Counted from the stretch's first letter, positions 1 to 31,083 are shown. The stretch is 64,000 nucleotides of DNA from an uncultured Actinomycetes bacterium (GCA_963762075.1 CAVXJC010000006.1:33788-97787); one strand, 5' to 3'. Notes: a model not told the origin generated them from the letters alone. A program made the numbers and translations.

Positions 1-763
1 CTCCCGCCTTCTCGATCAGCCGCCCGACGACTTGGTCGAGGTGCTCGTACGTTTCGCGGATCGCGTTCTCGTGACGAGGCGGATCGTCGGGTCCCGGATG
101 CTGCATGTGACGCCAGAAGAAGTGCTGGACCACATCGGACTCGGTGAAGACGACCATGAATGCTTCCCAGTCCCGCGTCTCCATAAGGTGCTCGGCGACT
201 GCAGCCCGCTTGTCGATCGACCGATGCAATCGATCCAGGCCTGCATCGATCTCCCCGGAGATCACGAAACCCGCGAGCGCCGGGTGCACGTAGTACTCGC
301 CACCGGCGACCTCCCGTATCTCGTGGCGAAGTTCGTCTGGGTGGGTGAACCCCGGCTCGTCGGCGCTCGGGCTGTCAACGCCCGAGACGAACACACCGTT
401 CACGGGCTCCGCGGGATAGCTGAGCGGCACGTTGAGAACGCCTACACGTTGGCCTTCCTCCGACAGGATGCGCCAGAACGCCTTGCCGTGGCGAAAGGAT
501 CCGTTGATGAACCGGTACTCGTAGGTCTCGGGCTTGTCCTCCGTGAACCAGTAGATGCCGTGCTTCCCTGGGTTGAGGCCGGTGACCATGGTGGACCAGG
601 CGGGGCCGCTATGCCTGTTCGGAACCGAGTTCAGTGTCCCCCACGCACCGTCGGCGAGGAAACGACCGATGTTCGGCAGTCGCTCCTCGGCCACCCATTT
701 CTCGACGAGGTGCGGCGTGGCCGCGTCCAGCCCGATGATCAAGACCTTCGATGGCCCGGTCAT
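1..763 (-). CDS. AlkP-superfamily type I phosphodiesterase/nucleotide pyrophosphatase family protein, paralog 3 (partial; 3' end beyond left window edge)
   Basis: Not listed in the ORF track because no stop falls inside the window. Minus-strand translation from the ATG at 763..761 gives MTGPSKVLIIGLDAATPHLVEKW...NSVPNRHSGPAWSTMVTGLNPGKHGIYWF. Motif order matches the two upstream paralogs. The ATG overlaps the TGA of the upstream gene (ATGA). Plus ORF 32..820 is its antisense shadow: low GC3 on plus, high GC3 on minus. Confidence 0.6.
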   Translation of the reverse strand, partial: MTGPSKVLIIGLDAATPHLVEKWVAEERLPNIGRFLADGAWGTLNSVPNRHSGPAWSTMVTGLNPGKHGIYWFTEDKPETYEYRFINGSFRHGKAFWRILSEEGQRVGVLNVPLSYPAEPVNGVFVSGVDSPSADEPGFTHPDELRHEIREVAGGEYYVHPALAGFVISGEIDAGLDRLHRSIDKRAAVAEHLMETRDWEAFMVVFTESDVVQHFFWRHMQHPGPDDPPRHENAIRETYEHLDQVVGRLIEKAG

Positions 764-2406
764 ACGTACCCCAGATCCCTCAAGTGTTCCGTCATCTGTT
801 CCTCTTCCTCCTGTGTGTAGGCCTCGTCTTCCGATCCATCGACGACCCGTGTTCCCGTGCGGCGGGGGTACCTGGCGGCGAACTCGGGCTCGAAGGCCTC
901 CGTGAGCACGCTTCCGTCCATGTCGTCCGGTAGTTCGAGGCCCAGCGCCCAGACGATGGTCGCCGGGACGTCGAGCAGGTGCGCTCTCCCCAGATCGTTC
1001 GCTTGCCGCACGGACCCGCCGTTCATGACGAGGATCCCGTCCGGACGATGGCTCGCACTGGAACGCTCTCGGCGACGCGTCGTGATCGTGGAGAGGCTCC
1101 GCTTGCCCCCCGCGTGTCCCGCTTCGCGTGACTCGTTCAACTCGAGGACGACGTCGGGGGCCGCCTCGGTGTGGATCCCGGAGTAGAGGTCCTCGCGACG
1201 ATGCGCCGCGCGGATGACAGGCTCGCCGGTGACGGGGTCTGTGAACTCCTTCGCCGCGTCGATCACCTGCTGGCGGATGGCCTCGAACTGGGCAACCGGG
1301 ACCGAGCCCAGCCGCTCGCGACCCGCCAGGTTGACGTTGACCCCCAGAACGTGATGGTCGATCGCGACGGCATACGCCCGGGATCTGGACCACTCGATCG
1401 AGCGCTCGTTCGCCTGGATCCGTTGCGCAGAGCTTCGTACAGCTTTCGGAGCGTGCTGCCACAGCCAATACTTCTTCGGGAGCACGTCCTTGCCCCACTC
1501 GAGGGCAGCTGCAGCGGGTCGGCGCCAAGGACGGCTCCCGGCCGCGACCTGCAGACCGAGCTCTTCGAGCCAGGCGTTCGCGTTGAACCTCAGCGGTGAC
1601 CGAGGACCAGTGCCGTGGTCCGACATCACGATCACGAGCCCGGGGTCGTCCACGGCTTCCAGCAGCTTTCCGAGCGACTCGTCCGCCCGTTCGTAGAAGT
1701 GATCGAGGAGCGTTCCGTCGCCTACCGGATAGGCCTCGAAGCCAGGTGCCGTCGGATCCGAGTATCTCCAGAACTTGTGAGCGACCCAGTCCGTGATGCT
1801 GTTGACATAACAGAAGAGATCGAACTCGTTCTCTCGGAGCATCTGCACGAGTGTCTCGGTCGAGCGCTCGAGGTAATGCTCGAAATTGTCGATCTGCGCT
1901 TCGACGCTGGCCACCATGCTCTTCAACGGAGCGAGCTTGACCATCGGGGGGAGGCCTTCACCGACCTCTTGCGGCATGGAGAAGTTCGTCTTGGGATCAG
2001 GGGTCGGGAAACCGGAGACCATGATCCCATTGACCGGCCACGGCGGATACGACATCGGTACACGAAAGGCGATCACTCTCAGGTCATTGCGAGAGGCGTG
2101 ATCGAAGATCGTTCTCCCCCGATACGCCCATGAGCCCATGAGTTCCGACCCGAGCGCCCCCCGCGTCATCGAACGGAAGTGGAAGACGCCGTGTTTGCCG
2201 GGGTTGACCCCCGTCATGAACGAAACCCATGCCGGCGCCGATAGTGGGGGGACCGTCGAGCGAAGACTCGCCCTCGTGCCCGTTGCCAGGAGGCCGGCCA
2301 GCGTGGGAAGCCGGCCTCGCTTCAACAGCGGATCGATGACATCGAACGTCGCACCATCGAGGCCGATGCACATCACCTTGGGGAAGGGGGGTTTCTCCTG
2401 TGCCAT
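760..2406 (-). CDS. AlkP-superfamily type I phosphodiesterase/nucleotide pyrophosphatase family protein, paralog 2
   Basis: Trimmed from ORF 760..2559 to the internal ATG (MAQEKPPFPKVMCIGLDGATFD). GLDGATFD, NPGKHG and MSDHG motifs of the AP/PF01663-like family are present. C-terminus ...LRDLGYV mirrors the upstream paralog (...LRALGYI). Confidence 0.8.
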   Translation of the reverse strand: MAQEKPPFPKVMCIGLDGATFDVIDPLLKRGRLPTLAGLLATGTRASLRSTVPPLSAPAWVSFMTGVNPGKHGVFHFRSMTRGALGSELMGSWAYRGRTIFDHASRNDLRVIAFRVPMSYPPWPVNGIMVSGFPTPDPKTNFSMPQEVGEGLPPMVKLAPLKSMVASVEAQIDNFEHYLERSTETLVQMLRENEFDLFCYVNSITDWVAHKFWRYSDPTAPGFEAYPVGDGTLLDHFYERADESLGKLLEAVDDPGLVIVMSDHGTGPRSPLRFNANAWLEELGLQVAAGSRPWRRPAAAALEWGKDVLPKKYWLWQHAPKAVRSSAQRIQANERSIEWSRSRAYAVAIDHHVLGVNVNLAGRERLGSVPVAQFEAIRQQVIDAAKEFTDPVTGEPVIRAAHRREDLYSGIHTEAAPDVVLELNESREAGHAGGKRSLSTITTRRRERSSASHRPDGILVMNGGSVRQANDLGRAHLLDVPATIVWALGLELPDDMDGSVLTEAFEPEFAARYPRRTGTRVVDGSEDEAYTQEEEEQMTEHLRDLGYV

Positions 2407-2414
2407 CCTGATTC

Positions 2415-4028
2415 CTATATGTAACCGAGGGCGCGCAGACGCTCCTCGATCTCCGCCGCCTCCTGGTCTGTATACGAGACCGATTGGTCGAGACCGTCCG
2501 GTCCGCCGGCGGTGTGAGAGATCGACCTTGACGCGTAGGGTTCGGCAAGCGCGTCCCACAGAACCCGCCCGTCCATGTCTTCGGGGATGGGTTCCCCAGC
2601 GAGGTGCAGGATGGTGGGTGCCAGATCCTGGAGGGCCGCTCCTTCGATCCGGCGTGCCCCGGCGAACTGAGGTCCTGACATCATCAACACGCCCAGGGGT
2701 CGATGCGCTCCGGACAGTCCGTGCATGAACCCCTTCGCGGACTGACGCGACAGCGCCCGCCCGAACCGGCCTTCATAACTGAGACCACCGACCGGTTCGT
2801 CGTAACGCCAGTCGATCTGGAGATCCGGCGCCTGATCGCTGTATGGCCCCGAGTAGATCTGCTTCGGCGTCCAGACTTGGTCGACCACCTGGCGCCCCGT
2901 CTCCGCATCCACCAACTCCGACAAGACCTCACGCAGCTCCTCCACGAGAGGCTCGTATTCCTCGGGCGACACCGTCCCATGCGGATCGCGGCCTTGAAGG
3001 TTGATCCACACACAGCTACGAGTGTTGTCGCCGAATGCGCGCGTGTTCTCCCAGTCGAGACCACCGAAGCGGACCTGGTAGCCGAACCTCCGATAGAGGC
3101 TGGGGAGACGACGCTTCAGGAACCCGCGCGCGTTCGGTCCGAGTCGCTTCGCCAGCCGGAGCGTCCGCCATCTCGCCGCCTCACCAGACGATGCTCCGCT
3201 GCGAAGATATCCGAGCTGGGCGAGGACGTCGTTCACGTGTTCGGCTGCAGGCTGTCGCCACCCCATGCCGTGGTCCGACATCACGATCACGCCGCAGTCC
3301 GGCCCCGCCTGTTCGAGGAACCTCGCAAGGGTGCTGTCCGCGAATTCGTAGACGGGTCGGAGACGCTCCTGCAAGGAGGCCTCCGGATCCCATACATGAT
3401 GTGCGGCCTGGTCGGTGGACTTGACCATGTACATGAACACGTCCCACTCGCGCGTCGCCATCAGGTGCAGGGCCGCGCGAACCCGGCTCTCCTCGGCCGC
3501 GAGCGCCGACTGGACCACACGCTCGTGGTGTCCCCCAGCTGCGTGATGGGCAACCGACGCATGCAAGATGTAGGGGCCGCACTCGCGTTCGAGCTCATCG
3601 ATCAGCCCATCCGGATGGCTGAACGACATGCTGCGCGTCGAAGGAGCGTCGAATCCCGCGACGAGCACACCGTTGACGTGCTCCGCAGGGTAGGTCATCG
3701 GGACGTTGACGATCGCGAGATCGTGACCAGCGTCCGATAGGAGCCGCCAAAGGCTCACGCCATGGCGATCCGCCGCAGTCACGAAGCGCACCTGCCCGGG
3801 GTCGTCCCCCTGCTCGGCGAACCAGAACACCCCGTGCTTCCCGGGGTTCTTTCCGGTCATGAACGTCGTCCACGCTGGGGCCGTGTTCATGTTCGGCACC
3901 GAACTCAGGTACCCCCACGCACCTTCATCGAGCAGGCGCGCGAAGGCCGGGAGCCGACCTTGCTCGGCCCACGGCAGAAGAAGGTCGAACGTCGCGCCAT
4001 CCAGCCCGAGGATCATCAGGCGATTCAT
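2415..4028 (-). CDS. AlkP-superfamily type I phosphodiesterase/nucleotide pyrophosphatase family protein, paralog 1
   Basis: 537-aa ORF. MNRLMILGLDGATFD...TGKNPGKHGVFWF...VIVMSDHGMG motifs are present. Start overlaps the Wzz-like stop (ATGA). Confidence 0.85.
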   Translation of the reverse strand: MNRLMILGLDGATFDLLLPWAEQGRLPAFARLLDEGAWGYLSSVPNMNTAPAWTTFMTGKNPGKHGVFWFAEQGDDPGQVRFVTAADRHGVSLWRLLSDAGHDLAIVNVPMTYPAEHVNGVLVAGFDAPSTRSMSFSHPDGLIDELERECGPYILHASVAHHAAGGHHERVVQSALAAEESRVRAALHLMATREWDVFMYMVKSTDQAAHHVWDPEASLQERLRPVYEFADSTLARFLEQAGPDCGVIVMSDHGMGWRQPAAEHVNDVLAQLGYLRSGASSGEAARWRTLRLAKRLGPNARGFLKRRLPSLYRRFGYQVRFGGLDWENTRAFGDNTRSCVWINLQGRDPHGTVSPEEYEPLVEELREVLSELVDAETGRQVVDQVWTPKQIYSGPYSDQAPDLQIDWRYDEPVGGLSYEGRFGRALSRQSAKGFMHGLSGAHRPLGVLMMSGPQFAGARRIEGAALQDLAPTILHLAGEPIPEDMDGRVLWDALAEPYASRSISHTAGGPDGLDQSVSYTDQEAAEIEERLRALGYI

Positions 4029-4996
4029 GGTGTCCGCACGCCCCTGACGTCAGCCCGACCTGTAAAGAGTTCGGTTTGCTCGTTCCGCGAACGCGATGAC
4101 TGCGCCTCGGCGCGACGTCGACGGGACCACCGTTCGATCCCGAGGATCGTGAGGAAACTCACGATGAGCCCGGCGAGAACGGCGAGGCCGACCGTGGAGA
4201 TGATGCGTGCGCGAACGGTATCGTCGGGGGCGCTCGGCGGGGAGATCATGATCGACGCTGTCCGCCGCTCCAAATATCGCTGGGTCGCGTCTTCGACCAA
4301 GGTTTGGATCGCGTCTCGGTTGCTGACAAGGACGCGGATCTGAGAGCTCGTGAGCGAATGCGCTGCTCGGAGGCGCTTCAGGCGTTCACGCAACTCCTGG
4401 ATCTCTGCCCTGTCGGCGATCGTAAAGGGCGCGGCCTGAAGACTGACCACACGCTCCCAGTACAAAGCGATCGAGCGCGCGTATTCACGACGATCTGCGC
4501 CCAAGGCGACGAGCTCCTGGGTCAGGTCCTGCACGTTCGACTCGACGTCGTCCTCCAGCCGCTGCACCTGCTCCAGGGCCAGCTCGTTCGATCGGTCGAT
4601 CAGGCTGGTGGATGCCTCCTCCACCGCCCTCTCGGCAACCGACCCAATCGATGCGGTCGCCGTGACGAGGTACACGTCTTCGCTGCGCTGCTGCACCGCC
4701 GCAACGGAATGGATCGCGGACGCCTGTGGTCCAAGGGTCGAACGAACCTGTTCCCCGAGGGCCTTGTTCGCGTACGCCCCCAGCTGGATCGCGATCGCGG
4801 AGACCTGAGTGGTCTTGGTGGCTACGGGGTCGCTGGCCGGGATGAGCACCTCAGCCTGGCTCACGTATTCGGAGGGAGCGGATAGCGCCAGAGGCAAGGC
4901 AACCCCCGCCGACACGACGACTGCAGCGAGTAGCGCCCACCACCTTCTCCGCACCAAGTCGAACACGCTCGAATTCTCGGACCGGCTCGATTTCAC
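4025..4996 (-). CDS. polysaccharide co-polymerase / Wzz-like chain-length determinant protein
   Basis: N-terminal TM helix followed by a YVSQAEVLI Wzz-type motif. Long coiled-coil middle. Pro-rich SPPSAPDD segment plus C-terminal TM helix. ATGA overlaps with both neighbours. Confidence 0.6.
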   Translation of the reverse strand: MKSSRSENSSVFDLVRRRWWALLAAVVVSAGVALPLALSAPSEYVSQAEVLIPASDPVATKTTQVSAIAIQLGAYANKALGEQVRSTLGPQASAIHSVAAVQQRSEDVYLVTATASIGSVAERAVEEASTSLIDRSNELALEQVQRLEDDVESNVQDLTQELVALGADRREYARSIALYWERVVSLQAAPFTIADRAEIQELRERLKRLRAAHSLTSSQIRVLVSNRDAIQTLVEDATQRYLERRTASIMISPPSAPDDTVRARIISTVGLAVLAGLIVSFLTILGIERWSRRRRAEAQSSRSRNEQTELFTGRADVRGVRTP

Positions 4997-5946
4997 GTCA
5001 CGTCGCCTACCTTTAGCCGAGTCTGCATTCGGCCGTACGTGACGGCTGCGAGCTTGACCCCTCCCAGAGCAAGGGTCTTCATGGTGTTGTTCGACCTGCT
5101 TCCTCCGTCTGGCGTCACCGCCAAGGTCGCCCGCATGCCCTCACGCAAGTAGGGCATCCTTCCGAACTCGCGGAGCTCCGCGAAGATCCCGACGTGCTCG
5201 TATACCGCGCCGATCCTTCTGTAGCGCCTGACGAGCTCCCGAATCCCCAGCTCGTGAACGTGCAGAACCGAGGCGCCGGGCACGTAGGCGATGTGGCAGC
5301 CGCTGTCGAGCAATCGTTTGGCGATACCGACATCCTCGAAGATGGCGAGCTCATCAGGGAATCGAAGTCGCCGCGCAACATCGGTGAGGAAGGCCGAGGT
5401 CACGTCAGAGAAGTGAAATGTTCGCAGGCCGAGCTCCCCTATCCGCGCCCTGCTCTTGAGCTCCGGCCGCTCGGGATAGAGATAGTCGTAGGTCGCCTGC
5501 CGTTCGGCGTTCGGGCGCGGCGCAACCTGGCGTCCATACGACGCCTGAGCTCGTCCGTCTGCCAGCGGCTCCACCAAGGCCTCGAGCCACGAGTCGCTCG
5601 TGGGGTGTGCGTCCGACGACAAGAACGCTACGACCGGCGTGGTCGCGAGGTCGACACCGTGGTTGCGCGTCCGGGCGTGACCGAACGAACGCGGATGCAC
5701 GGCCTCCCAATGATCGGCAGCCGCCCGAAGGGCACGGCTCGATCTCGATGTGGGGTCGGGACTCGAATCGATGACGATGATCGACAGGCCCGCTCCGTAC
5801 CGCTGAGATCGAACGATGTCCGCGGTCTCGATCTCCCAGTCTCCGGGGTTCTGGGTCAGGAGAACAACGCTCACATCAGGCCACTCCTGAACCGGCCTCT
5901 GCGCCTGGTTCCCGTCGCCGGCGGCCACCACCGCATCAAGCGACAC
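4993..5946 (-). CDS. family 2 glycosyltransferase (GT-A fold)
   Basis: VSVVLLTQNPG...IIVIDSSPD GT2 signature about 20 aa from the N-terminus. First gene of a five-gene minus-strand operon. Confidence 0.8.
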   Translation of the reverse strand: MSLDAVVAAGDGNQAQRPVQEWPDVSVVLLTQNPGDWEIETADIVRSQRYGAGLSIIVIDSSPDPTSRSSRALRAAADHWEAVHPRSFGHARTRNHGVDLATTPVVAFLSSDAHPTSDSWLEALVEPLADGRAQASYGRQVAPRPNAERQATYDYLYPERPELKSRARIGELGLRTFHFSDVTSAFLTDVARRLRFPDELAIFEDVGIAKRLLDSGCHIAYVPGASVLHVHELGIRELVRRYRRIGAVYEHVGIFAELREFGRMPYLREGMRATLAVTPDGGSRSNNTMKTLALGGVKLAAVTYGRMQTRLKVGDVT

Positions 5947-6244
5947 GATGGCTCCGCAGTACGATCGGGAGGGTTTGGGGGAAGATCTGGGGGTCGATCA
6001 CTTGGAACTGCCGTGTCAGCTCATCCGGCCCGAGACGTTGCGGCGCGCAACTGAGTCGGGAACGTATTCGCGTTTCGAAAGACCCCGTGGACGAGATGTG
6101 CACATAACCTCCAGTGTCCAAGGCGTCCACTGCTCGGGCCTTTGACCGACGCCTTGCCAAGTGGCGGAGACGATAGAGAGGGGTTGCCTGCGTCAAATCC
6201 GTCGCCTCCTGTAACTTGAGATGGTCAGGGCTACCCACGACCGC

Positions 6245-6974
6245 CTACGTAGGTATCTGTATGCGTCCGTCCGTCTGGGTCGCTCCGTCGAACAGATGGA
6301 TGGTGCCGTTCTTCAGCGCGACAGCTTCGAGCTTCGAGTGAACTTCCAGTTTGCGAAGGATGTTCTGGACGTGGGTTTCCACGGTCCGTTCGCTGATCAC
6401 TAACTCGTTCGCGATCGCGGCGTTTCGCATCCCCTTTGCGAGGAGCGCGAGGATCTCGCGCTCACGCTCGGTCAATCTAGCCGTCCTGCGGACGATCTCC
6501 TGCTTCGCTCGCCGCTTCCCGGAAACCCTCTGGATGAGCTTCGGAAGGCTCTGGAAATCGATCAGCTGCTCTCCGGTGGCCGCGACTTCGATCAGCTCGA
6601 AGAGCCGTTTGACCCGCTCGGCCTTTGGGACGATTGCGTCGGCGCCAGCTTCGATCGCCTCGAGGAGATGGTCATCACTGATGTTCCCGCTCATGACCAT
6701 CACCATGGTCGAAGGAGAAAGCGCCTTGATACGACGCGTCGCCTCAGTTGCGCTCGACCGCGAAGCAGCTTGCACGCCCATGAGGACCACGTGAGGCCGA
6801 TGCTTCTCGCAGATCTCAACGGCTTGACTCGGATCTTCGACCGGGTCGGCGATCAGACGGATGCCATCGGACAGCCTCATGACCGTGGCCAGGGCATCCG
6901 AGAGGAGTCCGCTTTCGTCGCAGATCAGGAGCGAGATCTTCTTGTCGTTCATGGCTTCGGTGGCCGAGCTCATG
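6245..6974 (-). CDS. LuxR/NarL-family response regulator with degenerate receiver (phospho-acceptor Asp replaced by Gly)
   Basis: Receiver-like N-terminus (LLICDES...HVVLMGVQ...VMVMSGN...AIVPK) plus C-terminal LuxR HTH (LTEREREILALLAKGMRNAAIANELVISERTVETHV). Start set at MSSATEAMNDKK, with a GGGAGG RBS about 8 nt upstream. Confidence 0.8.
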
Positions 6975-7207
6975 GCCCAGCCTCCCGAGGGTGTTCTCGT
7001 CGGCATGGGGCCTGCCAGTTCAGCTCGGGTCGCCATCCATGGGGGAAGGGGAACCTCATGCAGAAAGCTTACCCCAGGGTAGGTAAAAAGTCCTAGGCGA
7101 TTTTCCGTACTCGTAGTTAGTAGGTGAGAGAGGCAGACCCCTCAAGCGGAGGGTGCCACCCTCGACCATTCCGGGCACCGCCTCTGAGGCCAGCTCCGCG
7201 TGGCACC

Positions 7208-7678
7208 ATGGAGTCGATGCGGCGGACCATCCCCCCCCTTTGCGCGGCCCTCCTACTCACGGCCTGCACCGTTGGCGAGACCCACACAGGTGGCCCACGC
7301 ATGGGAACGGTGACGTTCGCCGGGGGGGCAGCGCTCGACGTGCGCATCGCCGACGACGACGAGGAGCGTCAGCGCGGGCTGATGGGGGTCACGTCGCTCG
7401 CAGCCGACGAAGGCATGGCGTTCGAATTCAGCGAGCCCACCGATTCCTCGTTCTGGATGAGGAACACGCTGATCCCCTTGTCGATCGCGTTCATCGGCGA
7501 GGACGACCGCGTCGTCACGGTCCTCGAGATGGAGCCGTGCGCCGCGGAGCCGTGCCCCACGTATTCCCCAGCCGGCCCATACGTGCTCGCGGTCGAAGCG
7601 AACGCAGGGTGGTTCGATGAACACGGCATCGACGAAGGCGATCGCATGGAGGGATACGTTGGCACAGCGCCCCGGTGA
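7208..7678 (+). CDS. DUF192 (COG1430) family protein, probable lipoprotein
   Basis: MESMRRTIPPLCAALLLTAC lipobox-like signal. GLMGV...GMAFEF...FWMRNTLIPLSIAF DUF192 pattern. Confidence 0.7.
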   Translation: MESMRRTIPPLCAALLLTACTVGETHTGGPRMGTVTFAGGAALDVRIADDDEERQRGLMGVTSLAADEGMAFEFSEPTDSSFWMRNTLIPLSIAFIGEDDRVVTVLEMEPCAAEPCPTYSPAGPYVLAVEANAGWFDEHGIDEGDRMEGYVGTAPR

Positions 7679-8013: not shown

Positions 8014-8868
8014 TCACGGCGTCGGGCGGACCTCTCCCCCGTAGCGTCGCTCGGCGATCCGGCGTCCGATCTCAGCGGCGAGCACCACGCAGAGCGAGAC
8101 CACCAGGACGACCGACGACACGGCGAGCAATTGGGGAAGCTGGCTCGGCACGCGGAGCTGTGCGAACAGGTATACGGGCCACGTCGGCGTCTCGCCCGAC
8201 AGGAATGAGGCGATCGCGTACTCGTCGAACGAGAGCGTGAACGCGATCATGAACGCGGAGATCAACGCGGGCATCAACAGCGGGAACGTGACCCGGCGAA
8301 AGGAATGCCACGAGCTCGCACCCAGGTCCTTCGCGGCTTCCTCGAGGCCGACGTTCAACCGCTCGAGCAGGGGGATGATCGTCAGCACCGTATATGGCAG
8401 CGACACGACGACGTGCCCGACCACGATCGCGTGCAACCCCAGTCCGATGTACTGGCCGGTCGCCGATGTCAGGAGCTTGTCGACGGCCGTGAAGATCACC
8501 AACAGCGAGACGCCGAACACGAGGTAGGGCACGACGAGCGGGGAGAACACCAGCGCGGAGACGGCCGACTTCCCCGCGAACTTGCGGCGCACCAGGGCGA
8601 TCGCGGCCGAGACTCCGAGCGCGACCGCAACGAGGCTCGACACGCCCGCCACGATCGCGCTCCGCTCGAGCGACCGGAGGATCTTGGGGTTGGCGAAGAA
8701 TCGCCGGTACCAGTCGAGCGTGAACCCGGCGAGCGGGAAGCTCACGTCTCCGTCGTTGAACGAGAACACTGCGAGGATGACGATCGGCGCGTACAAGAAC
8801 ACCACCAGCAACGCGAAGAAGATGATGAGCCCGCGCCGCGCGCCAGGTGAGGTCGCGATCTCGCTCAT
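8014..8868 (-). CDS. ABC transporter permease (PotC/PotI-like)
   Basis: Six-TM permease with the EAA-like motif EEAAKDLGASSWHSFRRVTFPL. Confidence 0.85.
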   Translation of the reverse strand: MSEIATSPGARRGLIIFFALLVVFLYAPIVILAVFSFNDGDVSFPLAGFTLDWYRRFFANPKILRSLERSAIVAGVSSLVAVALGVSAAIALVRRKFAGKSAVSALVFSPLVVPYLVFGVSLLVIFTAVDKLLTSATGQYIGLGLHAIVVGHVVVSLPYTVLTIIPLLERLNVGLEEAAKDLGASSWHSFRRVTFPLLMPALISAFMIAFTLSFDEYAIASFLSGETPTWPVYLFAQLRVPSQLPQLLAVSSVVLVVSLCVVLAAEIGRRIAERRYGGEVRPTP

Positions 8869-9779
8869 CGAGCGACCGCCCGAACGCGCAGGAACCGCCC
8901 GAACAGGGCCAACAGCAGCGCAACGGTCGCCAACAGGAACAGAGCGAGGGTCGAGCCCGTCTGCCAGTCGAGGCCCTTCGTGAACAGGTCCTGGATGGAG
9001 TTGCCGTACATGTAGCCGCTCGTGCCGCCCACGAGCAACGGTGTGACGAACTCACCGATCGTCGGGATGAACACGAACAGGAATGCCGCGAAGACACCCG
9101 AGAGGCTCAGTGGCAGGGTGACCCTCACGAACGTCCGCCATCTGCTGGCGCCAAGGTCGCTCGCCGCCTCGAGCAGGCTGCGGTCGAGGTTGTCGAGGCT
9201 CACGAACACCGGCAGCGCCACGAACGGCACGAAGATGTAGGCGAGCACCAATATCACCGTGAACCGGCTGTACAGGAGCCAGGTGATCGGGTCGCCCCCG
9301 CTCCGCACACCAGCCCACGAAAGGAACGAATTGATCACTCCCGCGTCGCCGAGGATCACCTTCCAGGCGAGCACCCGGAGCAGGAAGCTCGTGAGGAACG
9401 GGGCGATGATCAGCAGCAACAGCACGTACTTGCGCCGTCCGACGCACAGGGCGAGGAAGTAGCCGGTGGGGTACGCGAGCAACACGACGATCGCGGACAC
9501 CGTGAGCGACATGCGGATCGACTTCCAGAACAGGCCCATGTAGACGGACCCACCCGTGAGCAGGCGCTCCCAACTCGCGAGTGACACGATGCCGGTGTCG
9601 CTCGGGAACAGCTCGACGGCCCCGAAGCTGTACGCGGCGACGAACCCGACCGGGATCATGAAGAACAGGAGCAGCCAGAGCAGCGGCCCGGCCAGCAACC
9701 CCGCCGTGCCTCGACGTTCGGCACGGCGCCACCCGCGGCCGGCTGTTCGCTCGCTCGCCGCCGTCTCCCGGCTCGCCAT
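8865..9779 (-). CDS. ABC transporter permease (PotB/PotH-like)
   Basis: Permease with LEAASDLGASRWRTFVRVTLPL motif. ATGA overlap with the downstream permease. Confidence 0.85.
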   Translation of the reverse strand: MASRETAASERTAGRGWRRAERRGTAGLLAGPLLWLLLFFMIPVGFVAAYSFGAVELFPSDTGIVSLASWERLLTGGSVYMGLFWKSIRMSLTVSAIVVLLAYPTGYFLALCVGRRKYVLLLLIIAPFLTSFLLRVLAWKVILGDAGVINSFLSWAGVRSGGDPITWLLYSRFTVILVLAYIFVPFVALPVFVSLDNLDRSLLEAASDLGASRWRTFVRVTLPLSLSGVFAAFLFVFIPTIGEFVTPLLVGGTSGYMYGNSIQDLFTKGLDWQTGSTLALFLLATVALLLALFGRFLRVRAVAR

Positions 9780-9805
9780 CCGCTAGCTCCGGCCGGGAGG
9801 CCGGG

Positions 9806-10978
9806 TCACGCGGCCTGGACCTCGCTCCAGTACTGCTGGTAGATGCTGCGACGTTCGATGTACGTCTCCGGGTGCGAGTTGGGCTCGTCGAGCACCGTCG
9901 GATCGTCGAGACCCAGCGCCGTGCGCACGCCCTCGGGCACGACGTCGAGGTCTGCCGTCGTGTTCGTGTGCCCGTAGTAGTAGTAGGCGAGCAGGAACTC
10001 CGCCGCTTCCTTGCTCGCCCACGAGTCCACGTACTCATGGGCGTGGTAGTAGTTCTCGGAATCGGCGAACAGACCGAGCCCGCACACCCAGGAGATCCGG
10101 CCTTCCTTGGGCTGCATGTACTGGTAGTTCATGCCGGCCGCGTCGGCGTATCCGACGGTATCGGGCCAGGAGTAGCCGGCCCAGACCTCTTCCTTCTTGA
10201 AGGCGAGCCAGAAGTCATAGGACTGGTTCCAGTAGAACCGCACCAGTTCTTTCTTGGAGACGAGGAAGTCGCGCACCTCGGCGAGCTCGTCGTCGGTCAT
10301 GTTCCACGGGTCGGGGATCTCGAGGAAGTAGGCCGCGACGACCATCATGTTGAGGGTGTCGATCCAGGCGATCTTGCCCTTGTAGCGCTCGTCGAACAGC
10401 ACGCCGAACGTCTCGTCACTGCCGTCGACATGGTCGAGGTTCACGAGCGGGGCGATGAAGCCCCAGTCGAGGGGCACGAAGTACTGCTGGCCGTCGAACT
10501 GGCCGGCTTCCATGAGCGTGGGGTTGAGATCGCTGAAGTTCGAGATCAGCGAGGTGTCCCAGGGCTGCATCACCTCGAGGTCGACCCAGTCCTTGTACCG
10601 GTAACCGCACGGGTGGGCCACGTCGTACCGGGCGCCGGCGACGACCTTGGTGTAGCCGGTGTCGTCGTTCTCGTAGAGCGCGAACTCGGGCGTGTCGCCG
10701 GTCGCCTTCGCGTACTGCCCCCAGAGGAACTTCTTCTCTTCCTTCGGGTAGTAGTCGCCGTTGCCGTATCCCGACCAGTCGAAGACCTGAAGTCCGCCGG
10801 GCTCCTGCTCGATCGGAGGCCTGGCGGCTTGTGACGACCCCTGGCTGCCGCTCTGGGGCGTTTCCGCGTCGCGGCACGCGGCCAGCACGCCCGCCATGCT
10901 CACCGCCATGCCCGAATACCCGGCATACCGTAGGAAATCGCGCCGAGCGATGTCGCTGCCGAAACGCCGTGCTGCCAT
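9806..10978 (-). CDS. ABC transporter substrate-binding protein (PotD/PotF family), Tat/lipoprotein signal
   Basis: Start set at MAARRFGSDIARRDFLRYAG (twin-Arg) followed by ...VLAAC. GGAGGG RBS upstream. Family-1 extracellular solute-binding fold. Confidence 0.8.
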   Translation of the reverse strand: MAARRFGSDIARRDFLRYAGYSGMAVSMAGVLAACRDAETPQSGSQGSSQAARPPIEQEPGGLQVFDWSGYGNGDYYPKEEKKFLWGQYAKATGDTPEFALYENDDTGYTKVVAGARYDVAHPCGYRYKDWVDLEVMQPWDTSLISNFSDLNPTLMEAGQFDGQQYFVPLDWGFIAPLVNLDHVDGSDETFGVLFDERYKGKIAWIDTLNMMVVAAYFLEIPDPWNMTDDELAEVRDFLVSKKELVRFYWNQSYDFWLAFKKEEVWAGYSWPDTVGYADAAGMNYQYMQPKEGRISWVCGLGLFADSENYYHAHEYVDSWASKEAAEFLLAYYYYGHTNTTADLDVVPEGVRTALGLDDPTVLDEPNSHPETYIERRSIYQQYWSEVQAA

Positions 10979-11083
10979 GTCCGCGCCCTCCAGTCCTGTC
11001 GGGGACCCCTTGGTGGCCCGTATCATGCGGCAGGCAGACGCACGGGGCAAGGCACGTCCGAACGCAAAGGGGTCGGATCTCGT

Positions 11084-22611: not shown

Positions 22612-22896
22612 ATGCCGCGATATCTCGTTCAGCGAAACTTCGGCAATATCGACGATGAGCATCTTGAGCTGCGTGCGCGCAAGAGCAAGTTGCTCACCGA
22701 GACCGACTTCACCCAGATCACGTGGGAGCACAGCCACGTCGTCGGAAGCCCCGACGGGGCCGTCCGTACCTTCTGTATCTACTTCGCACCGGATGAAGCT
22801 ATCGTGCGTGATCACGCCGACGCGATGGGCGGACACCAGATAGAAGTGATCTACGAGATCGGCGGAGACGTGGCGCCATCCGACTTCACGAACTAG
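22612..22896 (+). CDS. DUF4242 domain protein
   Basis: MPRYLVQRNF...TFCIYFAPDEAIVRDHADAMGG...IEVIYEI matches the DUF4242 (PF14026) pattern. GGGAG RBS. Confidence 0.7.
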   Translation: MPRYLVQRNFGNIDDEHLELRARKSKLLTETDFTQITWEHSHVVGSPDGAVRTFCIYFAPDEAIVRDHADAMGGHQIEVIYEIGGDVAPSDFTN

Positions 22897-25039
22897 CGGG
22901 GTCCACTCGCGCCGCGCGCCGAAGGGTCTCCTCGTCCATCTGCGAGTGCTCGTATCGCGACCAAGCGACGCTGCGACGAAGACCGATCGAGCGGCGCCGG
23001 CCCTCCTCGTCCTTCGGGATCAGCGAGAGCGCCTCCTCGAATAGGGCCACCGCCTCGGCGTTCGCCCAGGCGCGCTCGGCACGCTCGGCCGCCGAGAGCA
23101 GGTAGCTCACTGCTCGCTGCGGGTCGCCTCCTTCCTTCCAGTGGTGGGCGAGGATTGCGGCGATGCTGTCGGCTTCCGGCACCGTCTGCTCGAAGTACTG
23201 GGCCACCGCCTGGTGCCGGTCGCGCCGGTCGCTCTTCGTGAGCGTCGAGTACGCGACGTCACGGATCAGTATGTGGCGGAACGCGTACTCGCGGTCGCCC
23301 TCGACCTTCGAGGAGGGCTCCGTCCGGATGAGGTCGCGCGATTCCAGCGAGTCCAATGCGTCGTCCAGCGCATCGCCGCTGGTGCCGAGTCCGCCCAGCA
23401 CACCATGCCAGAAGACCTTGCCCACCACGGCCGCGTCGTTCAGCACCGATCTCTCGTGCCTGGGTAGGGCATCGAGTCGCGCCGCGATCATCGCCTTCAC
23501 CGTGGTGGGGAGGACCGCGCGGTCACCGCCCTCAGCGACCCACGACGACAGCTCCTCGATGAACAGCGGGTTCCCGCCCGCCGTCGCCTCGATCTGCGCC
23601 GCGACCTCGACAGCCAGCGTTGGCGTGAGCTGCGCCGCCAGGGCTTGTGATTCCTCGGTCCCCAACGGCTCGAGACGGATCGTGAACGAGGAGAGCTGGC
23701 CGCCGCCCCACATCGGCCGGATGTCGAGCAGCTGGGGTCGGGCGAGGCACAGGAGCAGGATCGGCGTGTCCTTCATCCGGGCCGCCAGCGAGTCGATCAG
23801 GTCGAGCATGCTGGGGTGGGCCCAGTGGATGTCGTCGAACACGAGGAGCGTGGGCTGATCGTGCGCGAGCGCCTCCACGAACCGGCGGGCGGCGTCGAAG
23901 ACCTCGCGTCGATCCTCGGCGGAGGCCTCGGCTGTCCCTACGAAGACGGCCAGCCGTTGCGAGACTTCAGGGTCATCAACCCCTAGCCCTGCGAGGGAGC
24001 GCTCCAGCTTCTCGGTTATCACTGCATCGACGTCGAGCTCGAAGACCCCCGCGACCTCCTTCACGAGCTGCCCGAAGGCCTCGTAGCCGACGCTCTGGGT
24101 GTAGGGAAGCTCTCGCACCAGCAGGGATCGGCCGCCGGTGCGCTCCATGTGGTTCGCCAGCTCCGCCGCGATGCGGCTCTTGCCGATGCCCGGCTCGCCG
24201 AGGATCGTGACCAGGTGCGCCCGCCGCCCGGTCACCACGCGTTGCCAAACATCGTCGAGCAGGCCGAGCTCGCTCCCGCGACCGAGGAACGGCGTCTCGC
24301 TGGGGCGCTGCCCGAAGTCGGTGAGGGGCTCGACGGCGAGCCAGGTGGGGACCGGGTCTCGCTTGTTCTTGGCGATGACGGGCTCGACGTTCTCGTAACG
24401 GATCGATCGGTGCGTGGCGCGGTGGGTCTCCTCGCCCACGAGCACGCGTCCCGCCGGCGCAGCGGATTGGAGCCGCGACGCGGTGTTCACCATGTCGCCC
24501 ACCACGAGCGCTGTACTCTCCGACGTGGGATCGAGCTCTACGACTGCCTCGCCGGTGTTCACCCCCACGCGCACCCTGAGCTCGGCATCGGGCAGTTCTT
24601 CGTTCAGAGCGGCGACGGCGACCGGGATCTGGAGGGCGGCGCGAACGGCGCGCTCGGCGTCGTCACCCCGGGCCACGGGGGCGCCGAACACGGCCATCAC
24701 GGCGTCGCCGATAAACTTCTCGACGGTGCCGCCGAAGCGCTCGATCTCCACGCTCACGCGCCGGTAGTAGTGCTCGAGCAGCTCGCGCACGTCCTCCGCG
24801 TCGGTGGACTCCGACCGCGAGGTGTAGCCCACAAGGTCGGCGAAGACCACCGAGATAACCTTCCGCTGTCGCTCCGCGTCCTCGGACCTCGCCCGGGTTC
24901 CGCATGCCGGGCAGAACCGTGCGTCCTCGGGGCCGTTCGCTCCGCAATGGCTGCAAACCCATCCCACACCCGCCCCACACGTCGCACAGAAACGAGACTC
25001 ATCCGGGTTCGCTGCGCCGCAACTCGTGCACACCCTCAC
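22886..25039 (-). CDS. zinc-ribbon / class III adenylyl-guanylyl cyclase / AAA+ ATPase / TPR-like multidomain signalling protein
   Basis: N-terminal double CxxC zinc ribbon (CTSCG...CATCG...CSHCG...CPACG). Cyclase homology domain (VVFADLVGYT...FIGDAVMAVFG...NTASRLQ). P-loop GEPGIGKSR. C-terminal helical repeats. Start codon uncertain: no ATG, so GTG at 25039 chosen; TTG at 25090 is the alternative. Confidence 0.85.
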   Translation of the reverse strand: MRVCTSCGAANPDESRFCATCGAGVGWVCSHCGANGPEDARFCPACGTRARSEDAERQRKVISVVFADLVGYTSRSESTDAEDVRELLEHYYRRVSVEIERFGGTVEKFIGDAVMAVFGAPVARGDDAERAVRAALQIPVAVAALNEELPDAELRVRVGVNTGEAVVELDPTSESTALVVGDMVNTASRLQSAAPAGRVLVGEETHRATHRSIRYENVEPVIAKNKRDPVPTWLAVEPLTDFGQRPSETPFLGRGSELGLLDDVWQRVVTGRRAHLVTILGEPGIGKSRIAAELANHMERTGGRSLLVRELPYTQSVGYEAFGQLVKEVAGVFELDVDAVITEKLERSLAGLGVDDPEVSQRLAVFVGTAEASAEDRREVFDAARRFVEALAHDQPTLLVFDDIHWAHPSMLDLIDSLAARMKDTPILLLCLARPQLLDIRPMWGGGQLSSFTIRLEPLGTEESQALAAQLTPTLAVEVAAQIEATAGGNPLFIEELSSWVAEGGDRAVLPTTVKAMIAARLDALPRHERSVLNDAAVVGKVFWHGVLGGLGTSGDALDDALDSLESRDLIRTEPSSKVEGDREYAFRHILIRDVAYSTLTKSDRRDRHQAVAQYFEQTVPEADSIAAILAHHWKEGGDPQRAVSYLLSAAERAERAWANAEAVALFEEALSLIPKDEEGRRRSIGLRRSVAWSRYEHSQMDEETLRRAARVDPASS

Positions 25040-25112
25040 GCGAAAAGGATATCCGGGTGAGCCCGGCGACCAGCGGCCCGATAGCAGCAACCAGGGGACC
25101 GAACTGCGGAGG

Positions 25113-25361
25113 TCAGGATGATCGCTCCCTCATCTCACCCGTCATCATCGCGAGCCTCGGTAAGACGATTGGCAGCCGCCAGGTGCTGCGCCGGGTCGAG
25201 GAGGAGCAATCGGTCTCGAGGATTCGGCAGCCGAACATCTCCCTCGCGAGCTCCACGGCTACGACGCGAACCGCGTCAGGATCCAAGAGATGCTCGGGAT
25301 CAGCGGGCATCGACCACCCTTGGACCTCATCGAGGACGTAGTCGGGTGCGTGGATCCCCAT
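25113..25361 (-). CDS. hypothetical small protein (82 aa), C-terminus ...RERSS
   Basis: ATG preceded by a GAGAGG RBS about 7 nt upstream. GC3 about 75%. Sits between the cyclase and flippase genes on the same strand. Confidence 0.35.
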   Translation of the reverse strand: MGIHAPDYVLDEVQGWSMPADPEHLLDPDAVRVVAVELAREMFGCRILETDCSSSTRRSTWRLPIVLPRLAMMTGEMRERSS

Positions 25362-25629
25362 TTCTCATCCTCTCGCGCAGGCTGCGGGGTTCGCAGCTAT
25401 ACGGATGCGGTCCTCGACACCGATACCGGGTCATCGGATCCCAAGCCTCACCCTGGTCTCGAGTGACACCGGCGTTGAGGACCGTGCTGCCGCCGCCGTC
25501 AACCATCAACAGGAGGACGCCAGCGCCCTCGAATGAGGCCTGACTTCAGCGGTAAGCCCCTCACCGCGTGGGTCTCAGGGTTCTCCACCGGCGCATCTTC
25601 ACCCGCGACCTCCGAAGCAGCGCCCCACG

Positions 25630-27099
25630 TCACGCCCTTCGGCCGCGTAAGCGAGCGCGAACAGCGTCTAAGACGACGCGATCGTCGGCGTCGATCCCGA
25701 GAAGCGTCGTGGCCGTCACGTAGACAACGACGGTCGCCGCAGTGCCAACCAGGAGCGATGCGAATCCGCCTCCCATCAGGGCGCGGATCGAGAGGGCGAC
25801 GCCGCCCGCGATCACGCCCGCGGCCAGGCCTTTCACGAGACCTAGGTTGAAGGCAAACATCTTCAGGAACACCCATACCTGCGTCATGCGTGCGATGGTC
25901 AACAGGGCGATCGTCGACGCCCAAGCGATCGCCGCGCCGGACATCCCCAATCGAGGAATCAGCACGATGTTCAGTCCGACGTTCAACACCACCGCGGCGA
26001 GGTAGTTCGCCATCTGAACGACGGGCCGCCCGGACATCGTGAGCATGTATCCGCAGGGGCCGCTCGCGGCACTGAACAGCCAGGCGACGGTCATGATCTG
26101 CGTTACCACGACGCCCGATTCGAACGCCGGCCCGAAGATGGCGAGCAGCTCACGCGGGAAAACCAGGAGGACGACGAACCCGGGCAGTGACAGCCGGACG
26201 ACCCAGCTCGTGATGAGGGCGAAGGTCCTCTTGAGGAGCTCGTACCGGCCTCGCCGATAGAGGTCGGCGATCCGCGGCGCGAACGAGTTCGTCACCGGCG
26301 CAACGAATATGGTCGCCAACAGCGTGAGGCGCGTCGCGACCTGATACACGCCCACGTCGGCCGCGGAGCTGTAGATGCCGAGCAGGATCGTATCGGCCCA
26401 CAGCAGGCCGTTGCTGGCGATGTTCGACAGCCAGCTCGGCGCTGAGAACGTTAGGAGCTCGCGCACGTAGTAGCGAGGGCGTGCCTCGATCCGACCGACC
26501 AGGCGTTTCAACGCGATAGAGGCCAGGACGGCGGACGTCGTGTTCGTCACGACGAGGGCGATCATGACGCCCGTCAACCCCCATCCGGCCCAGATCATCG
26601 ACAGCGTGAGGACGATGCGGAAGGCCGGCTCGAACACGAGGTTGATGAGCGCGTACGGCTTCATCGTCTTGAAGCCCCGAGTCGCGCCGAGCGCCGCGTC
26701 CGTGTAGGCGGTCGCCGGCAGCGCGACCGCGACGAACCGCAGAACCGAGATCAGCCGCAGTTCGTCGTGGAACGCATGCACGGCGAGCCAGGGCGCGAGC
26801 GCAAAGAGCGCGATGCCCATGATGGCTGCGATCGCGACCGTCGTCGTGAGGCCGAGCCGGATCGTCCCACGCAGCGCAGCATCGTCGCCATCGGCCCTGT
26901 GCACGACCACGTACCGCGTCAGCGTGTCGGTGGCAGCAGCAGATGCGACGAGGCTCAGGAACGCGAGGATCGCGAACGACTGGAAATACAGACCGGCGAC
27001 ATCGGCCCCGAGCAGCCGCGCGATGACCAGCGTGATCGCGAAACGCAGCGCCTGATTGAAGAGGGCGCCGCCGAAGTTGGTGCCGCCTTGGCGCGCCAT
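25630..27099 (-). CDS. polysaccharide biosynthesis protein / Wzx-like MOP-superfamily flippase
   Basis: Twelve-plus TM helices typical of MOP/oligosaccharide flippases. Start set at MARQGGTNF (27099). The upstream in-frame acidic stretch from 27207 is the alternative. Confidence 0.7.
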   Translation of the reverse strand: MARQGGTNFGGALFNQALRFAITLVIARLLGADVAGLYFQSFAILAFLSLVASAAATDTLTRYVVVHRADGDDAALRGTIRLGLTTTVAIAAIMGIALFALAPWLAVHAFHDELRLISVLRFVAVALPATAYTDAALGATRGFKTMKPYALINLVFEPAFRIVLTLSMIWAGWGLTGVMIALVVTNTTSAVLASIALKRLVGRIEARPRYYVRELLTFSAPSWLSNIASNGLLWADTILLGIYSSAADVGVYQVATRLTLLATIFVAPVTNSFAPRIADLYRRGRYELLKRTFALITSWVVRLSLPGFVVLLVFPRELLAIFGPAFESGVVVTQIMTVAWLFSAASGPCGYMLTMSGRPVVQMANYLAAVVLNVGLNIVLIPRLGMSGAAIAWASTIALLTIARMTQVWVFLKMFAFNLGLVKGLAAGVIAGGVALSIRALMGGGFASLLVGTAATVVVYVTATTLLGIDADDRVVLDAVRARLRGRRA

Positions 27100-27296
27100 C
27101 CCCAAGACCTCTGCTCGACGACCGTCGTCGCCGAGACGATCCCCCCGCTGGTCGCCCGGCGCGCTGGCCACGGGTCCTTCGACCTCGGGGTCCTCTTTGC
27201 CCGACACGCCTCAGGCGCCGCGCTCGAACGCCGAACGATCGGCGCGGCGATGCCCTCGGCACAGGCGGTGATCGCCGAGACGGAGCCGATGGTCGC

Positions 27297-28430
27297 TCAT
27301 CGACAGACGGGCGCCGCGGCGCGGTAGAGGGCGTCGAGCGGCACCGGATAGGGGTGGACGATCTCGTGGGAGGGCTTCTCCGAGAGCGCCTCCGACAGCA
27401 GCCGTGCCTCGAGCTCCTGAGCGCCCTCGAGGAGATCGCTCGAGCGATCCGGGAATGCGAACCGGAACCATTGGTACGCATCGAGGAGCTTGCGTCGTTC
27501 GTACGTCAGCGACGCAACCATGCGCCGTGCGATCAGCTCCGGATCGGCGGGAAGCACTGCAACGCCGTCGCCGCCCACCGTTGCCAGGAAGACGTGATCG
27601 AGAGCGACGTTGTCGTGACGGACTGCTTCGCCGAACAGGTCCTCGGGCGACACCCGGACCTGCCCGAGCAATGAGACGCCGCCTTCAAGACTGAGCTGAT
27701 GGAGCGCGCTCGCGATGACGCCGCGCGGAGTCCGTCCATCGGCGAGGGAGTTGTACACCCGTCGATACCAGCGAAGCAGGAGCAGCCGCTGGCGAGCGCT
27801 CCGCGACACCCCGCTCCAGTATCTCGGCAGGGATCGGAGATGCCAGTCCCAGACATGGACGACGCCGCCGAGGCCGAGGAGTTCGCCTCCATCTGCCCGC
27901 ACGATCGTCCACTCGTTCGCGACGTAGGCGGCGCCCTCGGCCATGAAGGCGAGAAGCATCTCGGTCTTCCCGCCCTTCTCCCACCCGGCGACCAGGACCC
28001 CCTTGCCTTCATAGACGAAGGCGGAGGAATGAAGGAGCACATATCCTCTTCGCAGGAGACGCATCGCGATTATGGGCGTGAGCAGCGGGAGCGAGGTGAC
28101 GCCGCGCTCACAGACGATCTCGCAGCGGTCCCCGAGCACCTCGAGGTCGATCCGGATCCGGTGACCGACCGGATCCAGCAGGTAGAAATGCTCGTCGTCG
28201 TAAGCCGCATCGTTCGAACCCAGGAACCGTAGGCGACCCTCTGTCGGGAGGGAGTCGGTGAATCGGATTGAGATATCGGGCTCGGCTCCCGTCTCGCCGG
28301 TCGAAGGTCCGAGGCGACGGCGTAGCTGCCTCCGCATGGCGCGAGGAGCGGGCCGCATGCTGATCTTCACGAGCCCGTGCACGTTGTGGACCAGCGTGCC
28401 GTGTGGGGGTCGGAAAGGCTGATGCGTCAT
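27297..28430 (-). CDS. HPr-kinase/phosphorylase C-domain-like P-loop kinase (HprK-related kinase)
   Basis: Start at MTHQPF. LLHSSAFVYEGKGVLVAGWEKGGKTEMLLAFMAEGAAYVANEWTIV matches the HprK Walker-A region (GxxGxGKSE). Start ATG overlaps the TGA of the IS C-terminal fragment (ATGA). Confidence 0.6.
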   Translation of the reverse strand: MTHQPFRPPHGTLVHNVHGLVKISMRPAPRAMRRQLRRRLGPSTGETGAEPDISIRFTDSLPTEGRLRFLGSNDAAYDDEHFYLLDPVGHRIRIDLEVLGDRCEIVCERGVTSLPLLTPIIAMRLLRRGYVLLHSSAFVYEGKGVLVAGWEKGGKTEMLLAFMAEGAAYVANEWTIVRADGGELLGLGGVVHVWDWHLRSLPRYWSGVSRSARQRLLLLRWYRRVYNSLADGRTPRGVIASALHQLSLEGGVSLLGQVRVSPEDLFGEAVRHDNVALDHVFLATVGGDGVAVLPADPELIARRMVASLTYERRKLLDAYQWFRFAFPDRSSDLLEGAQELEARLLSEALSEKPSHEIVHPYPVPLDALYRAAAPVCR

Positions 28431-30977: not shown

Positions 30978-31083
30978 CACCACGGATCCGGAATCCCGCT
31001 CAGTGCAATGCTGGGCAGCTTCGCAGCGCTCACGAAGCAAGGAGCCCCGGCCGCTTCCTCCTGTCACCTCTCGCGCGGCAGCC

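Follow-up and report, generated by a model that had tools for sequence, protein, structure and literature searches.

An actinobacterial operon with PF01663 paralogs as the probable truncated head of a Wzx/Wzy-type polysaccharide cluster

The phospho-substituent transferases LtaS, EptA/MCR-1 and OpgB of the alkaline phosphatase (AlkP) superfamily belong to the family PF00884, are anchored in the membrane with extracytoplasmic catalytic domains, and draw on phospholipids as donors. A soluble enzyme of another family, PF01663, is AtaC, the cyclic di-AMP (c-di-AMP) phosphodiesterase of Streptomyces venezuelae, with a predicted site of three Asp, three His and one Thr and with phosphonoacetate hydrolase (PhnA) as its best template; it is described as monomeric, with one domain and one encoding gene (PMC7132281). 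In this article, we describe an operon with three PF01663 genes at the left edge of a 64,000-nucleotide (nt) stretch of DNA, hereafter the window, from an uncultured Actinomycetes bacterium (GCA_963762075.1, CAVXJC010000006.1:33788-97787; GC content 63-70%). We assign a probability of about one half to the overall reading that this operon is the head of a Wzx/Wzy heteropolysaccharide cluster whose cytoplasmic PF01663 paralogs act on phosphodiester or pyrophosphate groups. The structural and genomic part of this reading, taken alone, is highly probable, and the specific chemistry is tentative and on balance doubtful. The gene families and the type of pathway are already known; a conserved multi-paralog module of enzymes resembling nucleotide pyrophosphatases/phosphodiesterases (NPPs) in Wzx/Wzy clusters is not described in the searchable literature and the PDB, where we found neither a characterised member of the subfamily nor a solved structure, and hardly any publications on it.

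The open reading frame (ORF) listing and Pfam scores bear out the preliminary description of positions 1-5946 as five co-directional minus-strand genes in the order GT2 glycosyltransferase, Wzz-like polysaccharide co-polymerase (PCP), and three PF01663 paralogs, here called P1, P2 and P3 (Table 1). The PF01663 scores of the three paralogs are far above chance (E values 3e-33, 1e-34 and 3e-27, respectively; gathering cut-off 23 bits). The third paralog, which had been proposed to lie hidden at the window edge, is indeed present: its frame (763..1, minus strand) begins MTGPSKVLIIGLDAATP and runs without a stop across all 254 codons. P3 is absent from the ORF lists because ORFs that leave the window without a stop inside it go unlisted. 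All junctions had been described as ATGA overlaps, which holds for Wzz/P1 and P2/P3 only. The GT2/Wzz junction is a GTGA overlap or, if the PCP starts at GTG 4966, a 27-nt gap (the latter start is the one called in P0121, a public protein 97% identical to the window PCP), and P1 and P2 are separated by an 8-nt spacer, TAG GAATCAGG ATG, where the P2 start at ATG 2406 is backed by the N-termini of its orthologs. A promoter and terminator scan of positions 1-7200 was uninformative, with no promoters and two terminator-like sites against 3.6 expected. The GC content at third codon positions is ~0.77-0.78 in the operon genes (760-5946) and 0.85-0.92 in the ABC-transporter genes (8014-11050) and many other genes of the window; this crude measure hints at horizontal acquisition or different expression of the operon. 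An anti-phage defence function (for example, that of BREX PglZ, which is AlkP-like) was also considered and rejected, as the PADLOC models matched none of the five operon proteins.

The window offers a partial view of a larger arrangement, found in ten related actinobacterial loci (L001/L002, L003, L004, L011, L012 and L094-L097). The recurrent gene order is (LamG)-Bac_transf-GT2-PCP-A-B-C-D-Wzy-GT4-Wzx-GT2, i.e., the relatives have four orthogroups of PF01663 enzymes, A to D, and at least 9-10 genes, so that the terms "five-gene" and "triplicated" used previously reflect only what the window happens to include. Sequence identity is 54-75% within orthogroups and 26-40% between them. P2 is 57-60% identical to the B orthologs and P3 73-75% identical to the C orthologs, while P1, P2 and P3 share 28-40% identity with one another (30% for P2 and P1). 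This low identity, together with membership in three of four conserved orthogroups, argues that the paralogs are not recent duplicates, and the neighbour-joining phylogeny likewise agrees with ancient paralogs rather than the recent triplication that the earlier term "tandem paralogs" suggests. On sequence grounds, P1 is the window's member of A and P2 its member of B, while P3 is the beginning of a C gene product; these orthogroups diverged anciently.

The nearest relative with a long contig is L097 (70% identity), which carries LamG, Bac_transf, GT2, PCP, A, B, C and D. In L001, the GT2 encoded ahead of the PCP is 54% identical (tblastn) to the window GT2, and a GT2 occupies the same position in L001, L003 and L097. 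Reading frames in the relatives overlap by 4 nt at PCP/A and by 11 nt at both C/D and D/Wzy; the PCP-to-A and C-to-D-to-Wzy frames are overlapping or adjacent in L001, L003, L011, L096 and L097, and the D-to-Wzy frames also in L094 and L095. Wzy lies directly downstream of paralog D in L001, L003, L011, L094, L095 and L096, the Bac_transf priming transferase is present in L001, L004, L011, L095 and L097, and Wzx, GT4, Bac_transf and GT2 genes co-occur in loci that carry the paralog synteny. The glycan context proposed in the preliminary description is thus backed by the glycan-assembly genes of the related clusters. Because of the C/D and D/Wzy overlaps in the relatives, a fourth paralog and a polymerase are to be expected beyond the left edge, and paralog D and Wzy probably lie just outside the window. 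By this synteny, the operon is probably the first part of a Wzx/Wzy-type cluster that the window edge cuts short. Some of the related clusters include rml genes and nucleotidyltransferases. Sulfotransferases are found in or beside the related clusters L004, L012 and L094, and also in L013, and the cluster polymers may be sulfated. At two of the distant loci, the neighbouring genes include ATP sulfurylase and APS kinase. One related locus, L096, whose cluster is otherwise typical, has a complete SecA-like gene between paralogs B and C (5210-7618; SecA_DEAD 254 bits, PP_bind, P-loop_SecA), which raises the question of accessory-Sec export for proteins without a signal peptide.

The protein encoded upstream of paralog A is less readily classified. 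Among the Pfam families proposed for the operon, PF00535 and PF01663 exceed their cut-offs and PF02706 does not: the window PCP scores 18.4 bits against a Wzz cut-off of 25.5, and it has no NCBIfam match. A hydropathy scan, the only basis for its topology, shows a basic N-terminus, a transmembrane (TM) segment at 21-39, a loop of ~230 residues, a second TM segment at 269-287, and a basic C-terminal tail. Basic residues flank both TM segments on the predicted cytoplasmic side, which fits the topology of PCPs, with both termini inside and a large loop outside the cytoplasm. The protein has 28-37% identity with the products of the genes upstream of A in L001, L003, L011 and L012, as well as with L004_4 over its N-terminal half. 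Relatives are few; an exhaustive phmmer search of 1.84 billion representatives returned only 40, and a word-indexed search two. The most distant of them, P0221 and P0224 (weak matches, E ~1e-4), pass the Wzz cut-off at 31 and 38 bits and have P-loop (CbiA/AAA_31) domains after the second TM segment, which is the Wzc-type architecture. Based on topology and transitive homology, we assign the window protein as a kinase-less PCP/Wzz-like protein, with a predicted role in chain length. No gene for a bacterial tyrosine kinase (BY-kinase) was found in any related locus. In L004_4 (P0123; L004 15571-18084, 837 aa), a PCP-like protein with two TM segments is fused to paralog D, and the enzyme domain follows the second TM segment, where Wzc-type PCPs have the BY-kinase. 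This fusion could be real or an assembly artefact.

Seven catalytic residues of the NPP type (D10, T/S49, D206, H210, D252, H253 and H442) are kept in P1, P2 and all A-D orthologs. This set of three Asp, three His and a Thr or Ser nucleophile builds a two-metal site in NPPs. The nucleophile is T49 in P1 and Ser in P2, and in P3 the equivalents of D10, S49, D206 and H210 are present up to the window edge. A single-sequence search of the PDB gave no match; the family profile matches PhnA (the best sequence match) and NPPs, and T49 of P1 aligns with a PhnA position that is Thr in 3szy and Ala in 3t02. The AlphaFold model of P1, which is confident (pLDDT 89.7, pTM 0.91), has an AlkP alpha/beta core fold nearest to the NPPs, with ~150-190 residues that lack an NPP counterpart, among them an insertion at ~260-440 and a C-terminal helix. 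The A-D enzymes share 45 invariant positions; another 24 positions show conservation inside groups and differences between them. The group-specific positions 47, 54, 56, 57, 207, 209, 255 and 441 flank catalytic residues, which suggests four distinct specificities rather than redundancy.

In a simple hydropathy scan, hydrophobic N-termini, signal peptides and TM segments are absent from the paralogs. Their catalytic Asp lies at about residue 10; a cytoplasmic location is the simplest reading of these features, and the enzymes are probably cytoplasmic. An acidic C-terminal helix of the form Y[ST]xEEE......L..LGY[VIL][DE] is found at residues 517-537 of P1 (window 2418-2480) and at the C-terminus of P2 (window 763-825), whereas P3 stops before the tail region. 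Of 185 family proteins, 168 carry this LGY tail, which may act as a common element for docking or oligomerisation. Among the 3819 ORFs of all fetched loci, it occurs outside the family only on one PF00884 protein of the sulfatase fold. The latter (L079 4457-5839, 142 bits) has no signal peptide, is encoded next to two GT4 genes and a member of the family, and has Thr and His in place of the Cys and Arg of the sulfatase C-x-P-x-R formylglycine motif (WTVPSH).

Homologs of P1 number in the thousands and have no annotation beyond "predicted AlkP superfamily phosphohydrolase/phosphomutase" (COG3379-type); matches to members annotated by JGI cover 100% of the query with E values down to 1e-291. The exact P1 sequence has no database record. 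The closest homologs (60-78% identity) come from metagenomes and from metagenome-assembled genomes (MAGs) of Egibacteraceae and other Actinomycetota, and a scan of a genome collection found only distant relatives at 30-38% identity. The family is abundant, with 3284 matches among 8000 candidates scored and more than 571 metagenome stretches. The analysis also covered 80 metagenome and 6 genome loci with family members at 30-39% identity. Two or more family copies, and up to six, are carried by 24 of the 41 loci of at least 12 kb, and other lineages have conserved paralog sets of their own. The 155 same-strand neighbours at 35 distant loci include GT4 (21), GT2 (8), Wzy_C (8), flippases of the MOP superfamily (~10) and methyltransferases (10), as well as deacetylases, acetyltransferases and two genes for synthesis of 3'-phosphoadenosine 5'-phosphosulfate (PAPS). 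At least one glycan-assembly gene was detected with home-made profiles in 27 of 36 distant long loci; a PCP was found in none of the 36. The association of the family with glycan-assembly genes is strong in these raw counts. Moreover, GT4/GT1 and PF01663 domains are joined in the single polypeptides P0151 (668 aa) and P0182 (546 aa), and these fusions provide an independent link of the enzyme family to cytoplasmic glycan synthesis. The architecture had been called unusual; multi-copy arrays beside glycosyltransferases, Wzy and flippases in fact recur across many phyla.

Table 1. Positions of the operon genes and of other features discussed, counted from the first letter of the window.
Feature	Position	Strand	Details
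GT2 glycosyltransferase	4993-5946	-	317 aa, GTG start; PF00535 44.9 bits (cut-off 23.3)
Kinase-less PCP/Wzz-like protein (predicted)	4025-4996	-	323 aa; start GTG 4996 or GTG 4966
Paralog A (P1)	2415-4028	-	537 aa; COG3379-type, NPP-like AlkP-superfamily metalloenzyme; PF01663 116.2 bits
Paralog B (P2)	760-2406	-	548 aa from ATG 2406; PF01663 120.6 bits
Paralog C (P3)	1-763	-	N-terminal 254 aa only, gene leaves the window; PF01663 96.7 bits
LuxR/NarL-type response regulator	6245-7036	-	PF00196 74.6 bits, PF00072 45.6 bits; 298 nt upstream of the operon
Cyclase-AAA_16 protein	22886-25090	-	PF00211 82.1 bits, PF13191 79.6 bits; adjoins Wzx
Wzx-type flippase	25630-27207	-	PF01943 73.3 bits; ~20 kb from the operon
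377-aa protein	27297-28430	-	P-loop-like GWEKGGKTE motif; no Pfam match
Sulfotransferase-domain protein	29315-30913	+	532 aa; PF13469 124.5 bits
LamG-like membrane-anchored protein	30780-31895	-	homolog of the LamG gene preceding the cluster in L001 and L097

Further components of such a cluster are found elsewhere in the window, in a second glycan-related locus at 22886-31895, some 17-25 kb away from the operon. The Wzx-type flippase is an ortholog of the Wzx that the related clusters contain, with 54-57% identity to those of L001 and L003. The neighbouring cyclase-AAA_16 protein is 35% identical over 702 aa to the product of L001 670-3882, which lies upstream of the cluster there, and the LamG-like protein is 38% identical over 199 aa to that of L001 6227-7225 (PF13385 is recorded in L001 and L097). 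Because the cyclase, LamG and Wzx homologs flank or sit in one contiguous cluster in L001, the cluster appears to be split or rearranged in the window genome, with Wzx, the sulfotransferase and the LamG-like gene displaced to 25.6-31.9 kb. Two minus-strand stretches, the long ORF at 28716-29681 and the initial ~83 codons of 27297-28679, are rich in Arg and Pro, have no Pfam match and are probably not coding as listed. Upstream of the operon, the response regulator has an N-terminal extension of ~30 residues and no adjoining histidine kinase. It is a possible regulator of the operon and is not conserved beside the related clusters, where a Bac_transf gene takes its place. The genes beyond it (DUF192, an ABC importer, glucose-6-phosphate dehydrogenase) are unrelated. 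A tRNA-Tyr (GTA) gene at 33543-33626 (minus strand) is the sole Rfam/ARAGORN feature of the window.

The mechanism that we favour can be outlined as follows. Positions 1-5946 would form the promoter-proximal part of a Wzx/Wzy-dependent cluster for a surface or extracellular heteropolysaccharide in a high-GC actinobacterium, of which the closest named relative is a MAG of the Egibacteraceae. They would encode a GT2, a PCP that lacks a kinase, and paralogs A, B and C, the leading members of the conserved four-enzyme COG3379/PF01663 set that diverged anciently. The synteny of the relatives predicts that the remainder of C lies just to the left of the window, followed by paralog D, the Wzy polymerase and a GT4. 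The paralogs, as metalloenzymes of the cytoplasm, would act at the membrane's inner face beside the PCP/Wzy machinery, where a covalent Thr/Ser-phosphoryl intermediate would lead to cleavage or transfer of groups in phosphodiester or pyrophosphate linkage. For instance, nucleotide-activated donors would provide phospho-substituents or sugar-1-phosphates that are added to, or trimmed on, the undecaprenyl-diphosphate-linked repeat unit. Such transfer or trimming is favoured because these donors and the lipid-linked repeat unit are the substrates available at the cytoplasmic face, in analogy to LtaS and EptA, which work at the opposite face of the membrane. Each paralog may have its own substrate, given that the residues next to the catalytic ones are kept within groups and differ between groups. 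A phospho-substituent role on a surface glycan had been suggested for these enzymes. As a class of function it appears the most plausible one; the finished surface polymer is an unlikely target, however, since proteins without a signal peptide or TM segment would, if they act on glycans, be expected to do so in the cytoplasm, on nucleotide-activated or lipid-linked intermediates.

Several observations weigh against this reading. With regard to the cluster itself, the neighbour counts are raw and were made without a background set, the neighbour-joining tree in which each of A-D is monophyletic carries no support values, and neither the priming transferase (Bac_transf) nor Wzy has a tblastn match in the window. 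P0123 is the sole fusion of a PCP with paralog D among 65 relatives and comes from one MAG; as a singleton, it counts as a hint rather than as key evidence. The cytoplasmic location is a hydropathy prediction only, and the SecA-like gene of L096 could allow non-classical export. With regard to the chemistry, it is extrapolated from the superfamily, as a substrate is known for none of the subfamily's members. The clusters showed neither a cytidylyltransferase nor any other evident gene for synthesis of a phospho-substituent donor, and the recurrent decorating enzymes are sulfotransferases, not phosphotransferases; both findings weaken the specific idea of phospho-transfer. A bolder proposal, in which the four paralogs form a so far unrecognised cytoplasmic Wzx/Wzy module that docks to PCP/Wzy via the LGY tail, and installs or edits phosphodiester-linked or related anionic substituents before flipping, is unlikely as it stands. 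Such a module would take the place that BY-kinases have in classical systems and would do in the cytoplasm, with nucleotide donors, what transferases of the LtaS/EptA type do in the periplasm.

The same soluble proteins could instead be phosphodiesterases of nucleotides or second messengers, similar to AtaC, or pyrophosphatases of nucleotide sugars or PAP(S), which regulate the pathway or clear its by-products and leave the glycan unmodified. AtaC is a precedent in that it is a soluble PF01663 enzyme with the same seven-residue site that clears cytoplasmic c-di-AMP (PMC7132281). NPPs are the closest folds, and NPP3 has been crystallised with UDP-GlcNAc; a cyclase-domain protein is encoded near the cluster in both the window and L001, and the co-occurring sulfotransferases should yield PAP. 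It is hard, however, to square housekeeping hydrolysis with four to six non-redundant paralogs per locus in sets conserved across lineages, and the frame overlaps with PCP and Wzy, like the GT4 fusions, point to an assembly line. The paralogs also exceed the Xanthomonas axonopodis NPP (383 aa in the PDB entry) by ~150 residues and have a conserved C-terminal tail, and their NCBIfam matches include no family whose name refers to c-di-AMP hydrolysis. We consider this explanation quite unlikely.

The PCP without a kinase domain, together with the absence of BY-kinase genes from all related loci, suggests another role, in which the paralogs are regulatory partners of the PCP that fill the place of a BY-kinase or phosphatase and control polymerisation or chain length by, for example, phosphoryl transfer or scaffolding. 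The distant PCP relatives carry P-loop domains after the second TM segment, exactly where L004 has paralog D fused, and the acidic LGY helix shared by all paralogs could be a common docking element. That fusion is a singleton, however, the strong conservation of all catalytic residues fits catalysis on small molecules or glycolipids equally well, and family members in distant phyla occur without a PCP of the window type (none in 36 distant loci). A regulatory role of this kind is decidedly improbable. Even less probable, and indeed very unlikely, is that the paralogs are AlkP-type phosphomutases, similar to cofactor-independent phosphoglycerate mutase (iPGM) or phosphopentomutase, which provide the sugar-1-phosphates from which the repeat unit's nucleotide sugars are made; this idea draws on the JGI label "phosphohydrolase/phosphomutase", on matches to iPGM and the Metalloenzyme family that are weak and local, and on the rml and nucleotidyltransferase genes of some clusters. 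That the proteins are secreted phosphate-scavenging phosphatases or phosphodiesterases placed beside glycan genes by chance is hardly credible, for although the alkaline phosphatases PafA and PhoK are among the top structural matches, the paralogs have no signal peptide or TM segment, their frames overlap those of PCP and Wzy, and the synteny with glycan genes is conserved in at least ten loci and many phyla.

The subfamily of PF01663 considered here is very common in environmental bacteria and typically forms multi-paralog sets inside polysaccharide clusters. If its members modify lipid-linked repeat units, they would constitute a new class of cytoplasmic glycan-decorating enzymes and would explain a part of the anionic-polymer chemistry of little-studied phyla, for example Nitriliruptoria-like Actinomycetota, Chloroflexota and Planctomycetota. 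If they act instead with the kinase-less PCP, they would be relevant to the control of chain length and polymerisation in systems that lack BY-kinases. The window is one more truncated and rearranged example and adds little beyond that.

Compared with the known systems, the window proteins are only 15-20% identical to the NPP of Xanthomonas axonopodis (PDB 2gsn, 7mw8) and to ENPP1-7. They differ from NPPs by ~150-190 extra residues (among them the insertion at ~260-440 and the conserved acidic C-terminal LGY tail), and from the ENPPs, which are ecto-enzymes by name, in having no signal peptide and in forming multi-paralog sets within glycan clusters. With AtaC, compared here by its published description, they share PF01663 membership, the constellation of catalytic residues and PhnA as the best PDB match; unlike AtaC, they occur as three to four paralogs of 490-565 aa inside a polysaccharide operon. 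In contrast to LtaS, EptA/MCR-1 and OpgB, they belong to a different Pfam family (PF01663) and are soluble and apparently cytoplasmic. Finally, the PCP resembles Wzc (PCP-2a) and CapA/CapB (PCP-2b) in its topology with two TM segments and its proximity to Wzy and Wzx, but where those systems have a kinase domain or gene, the present clusters have AlkP-type enzymes encoded after the PCP and, in one MAG, fused to it after the second TM segment.

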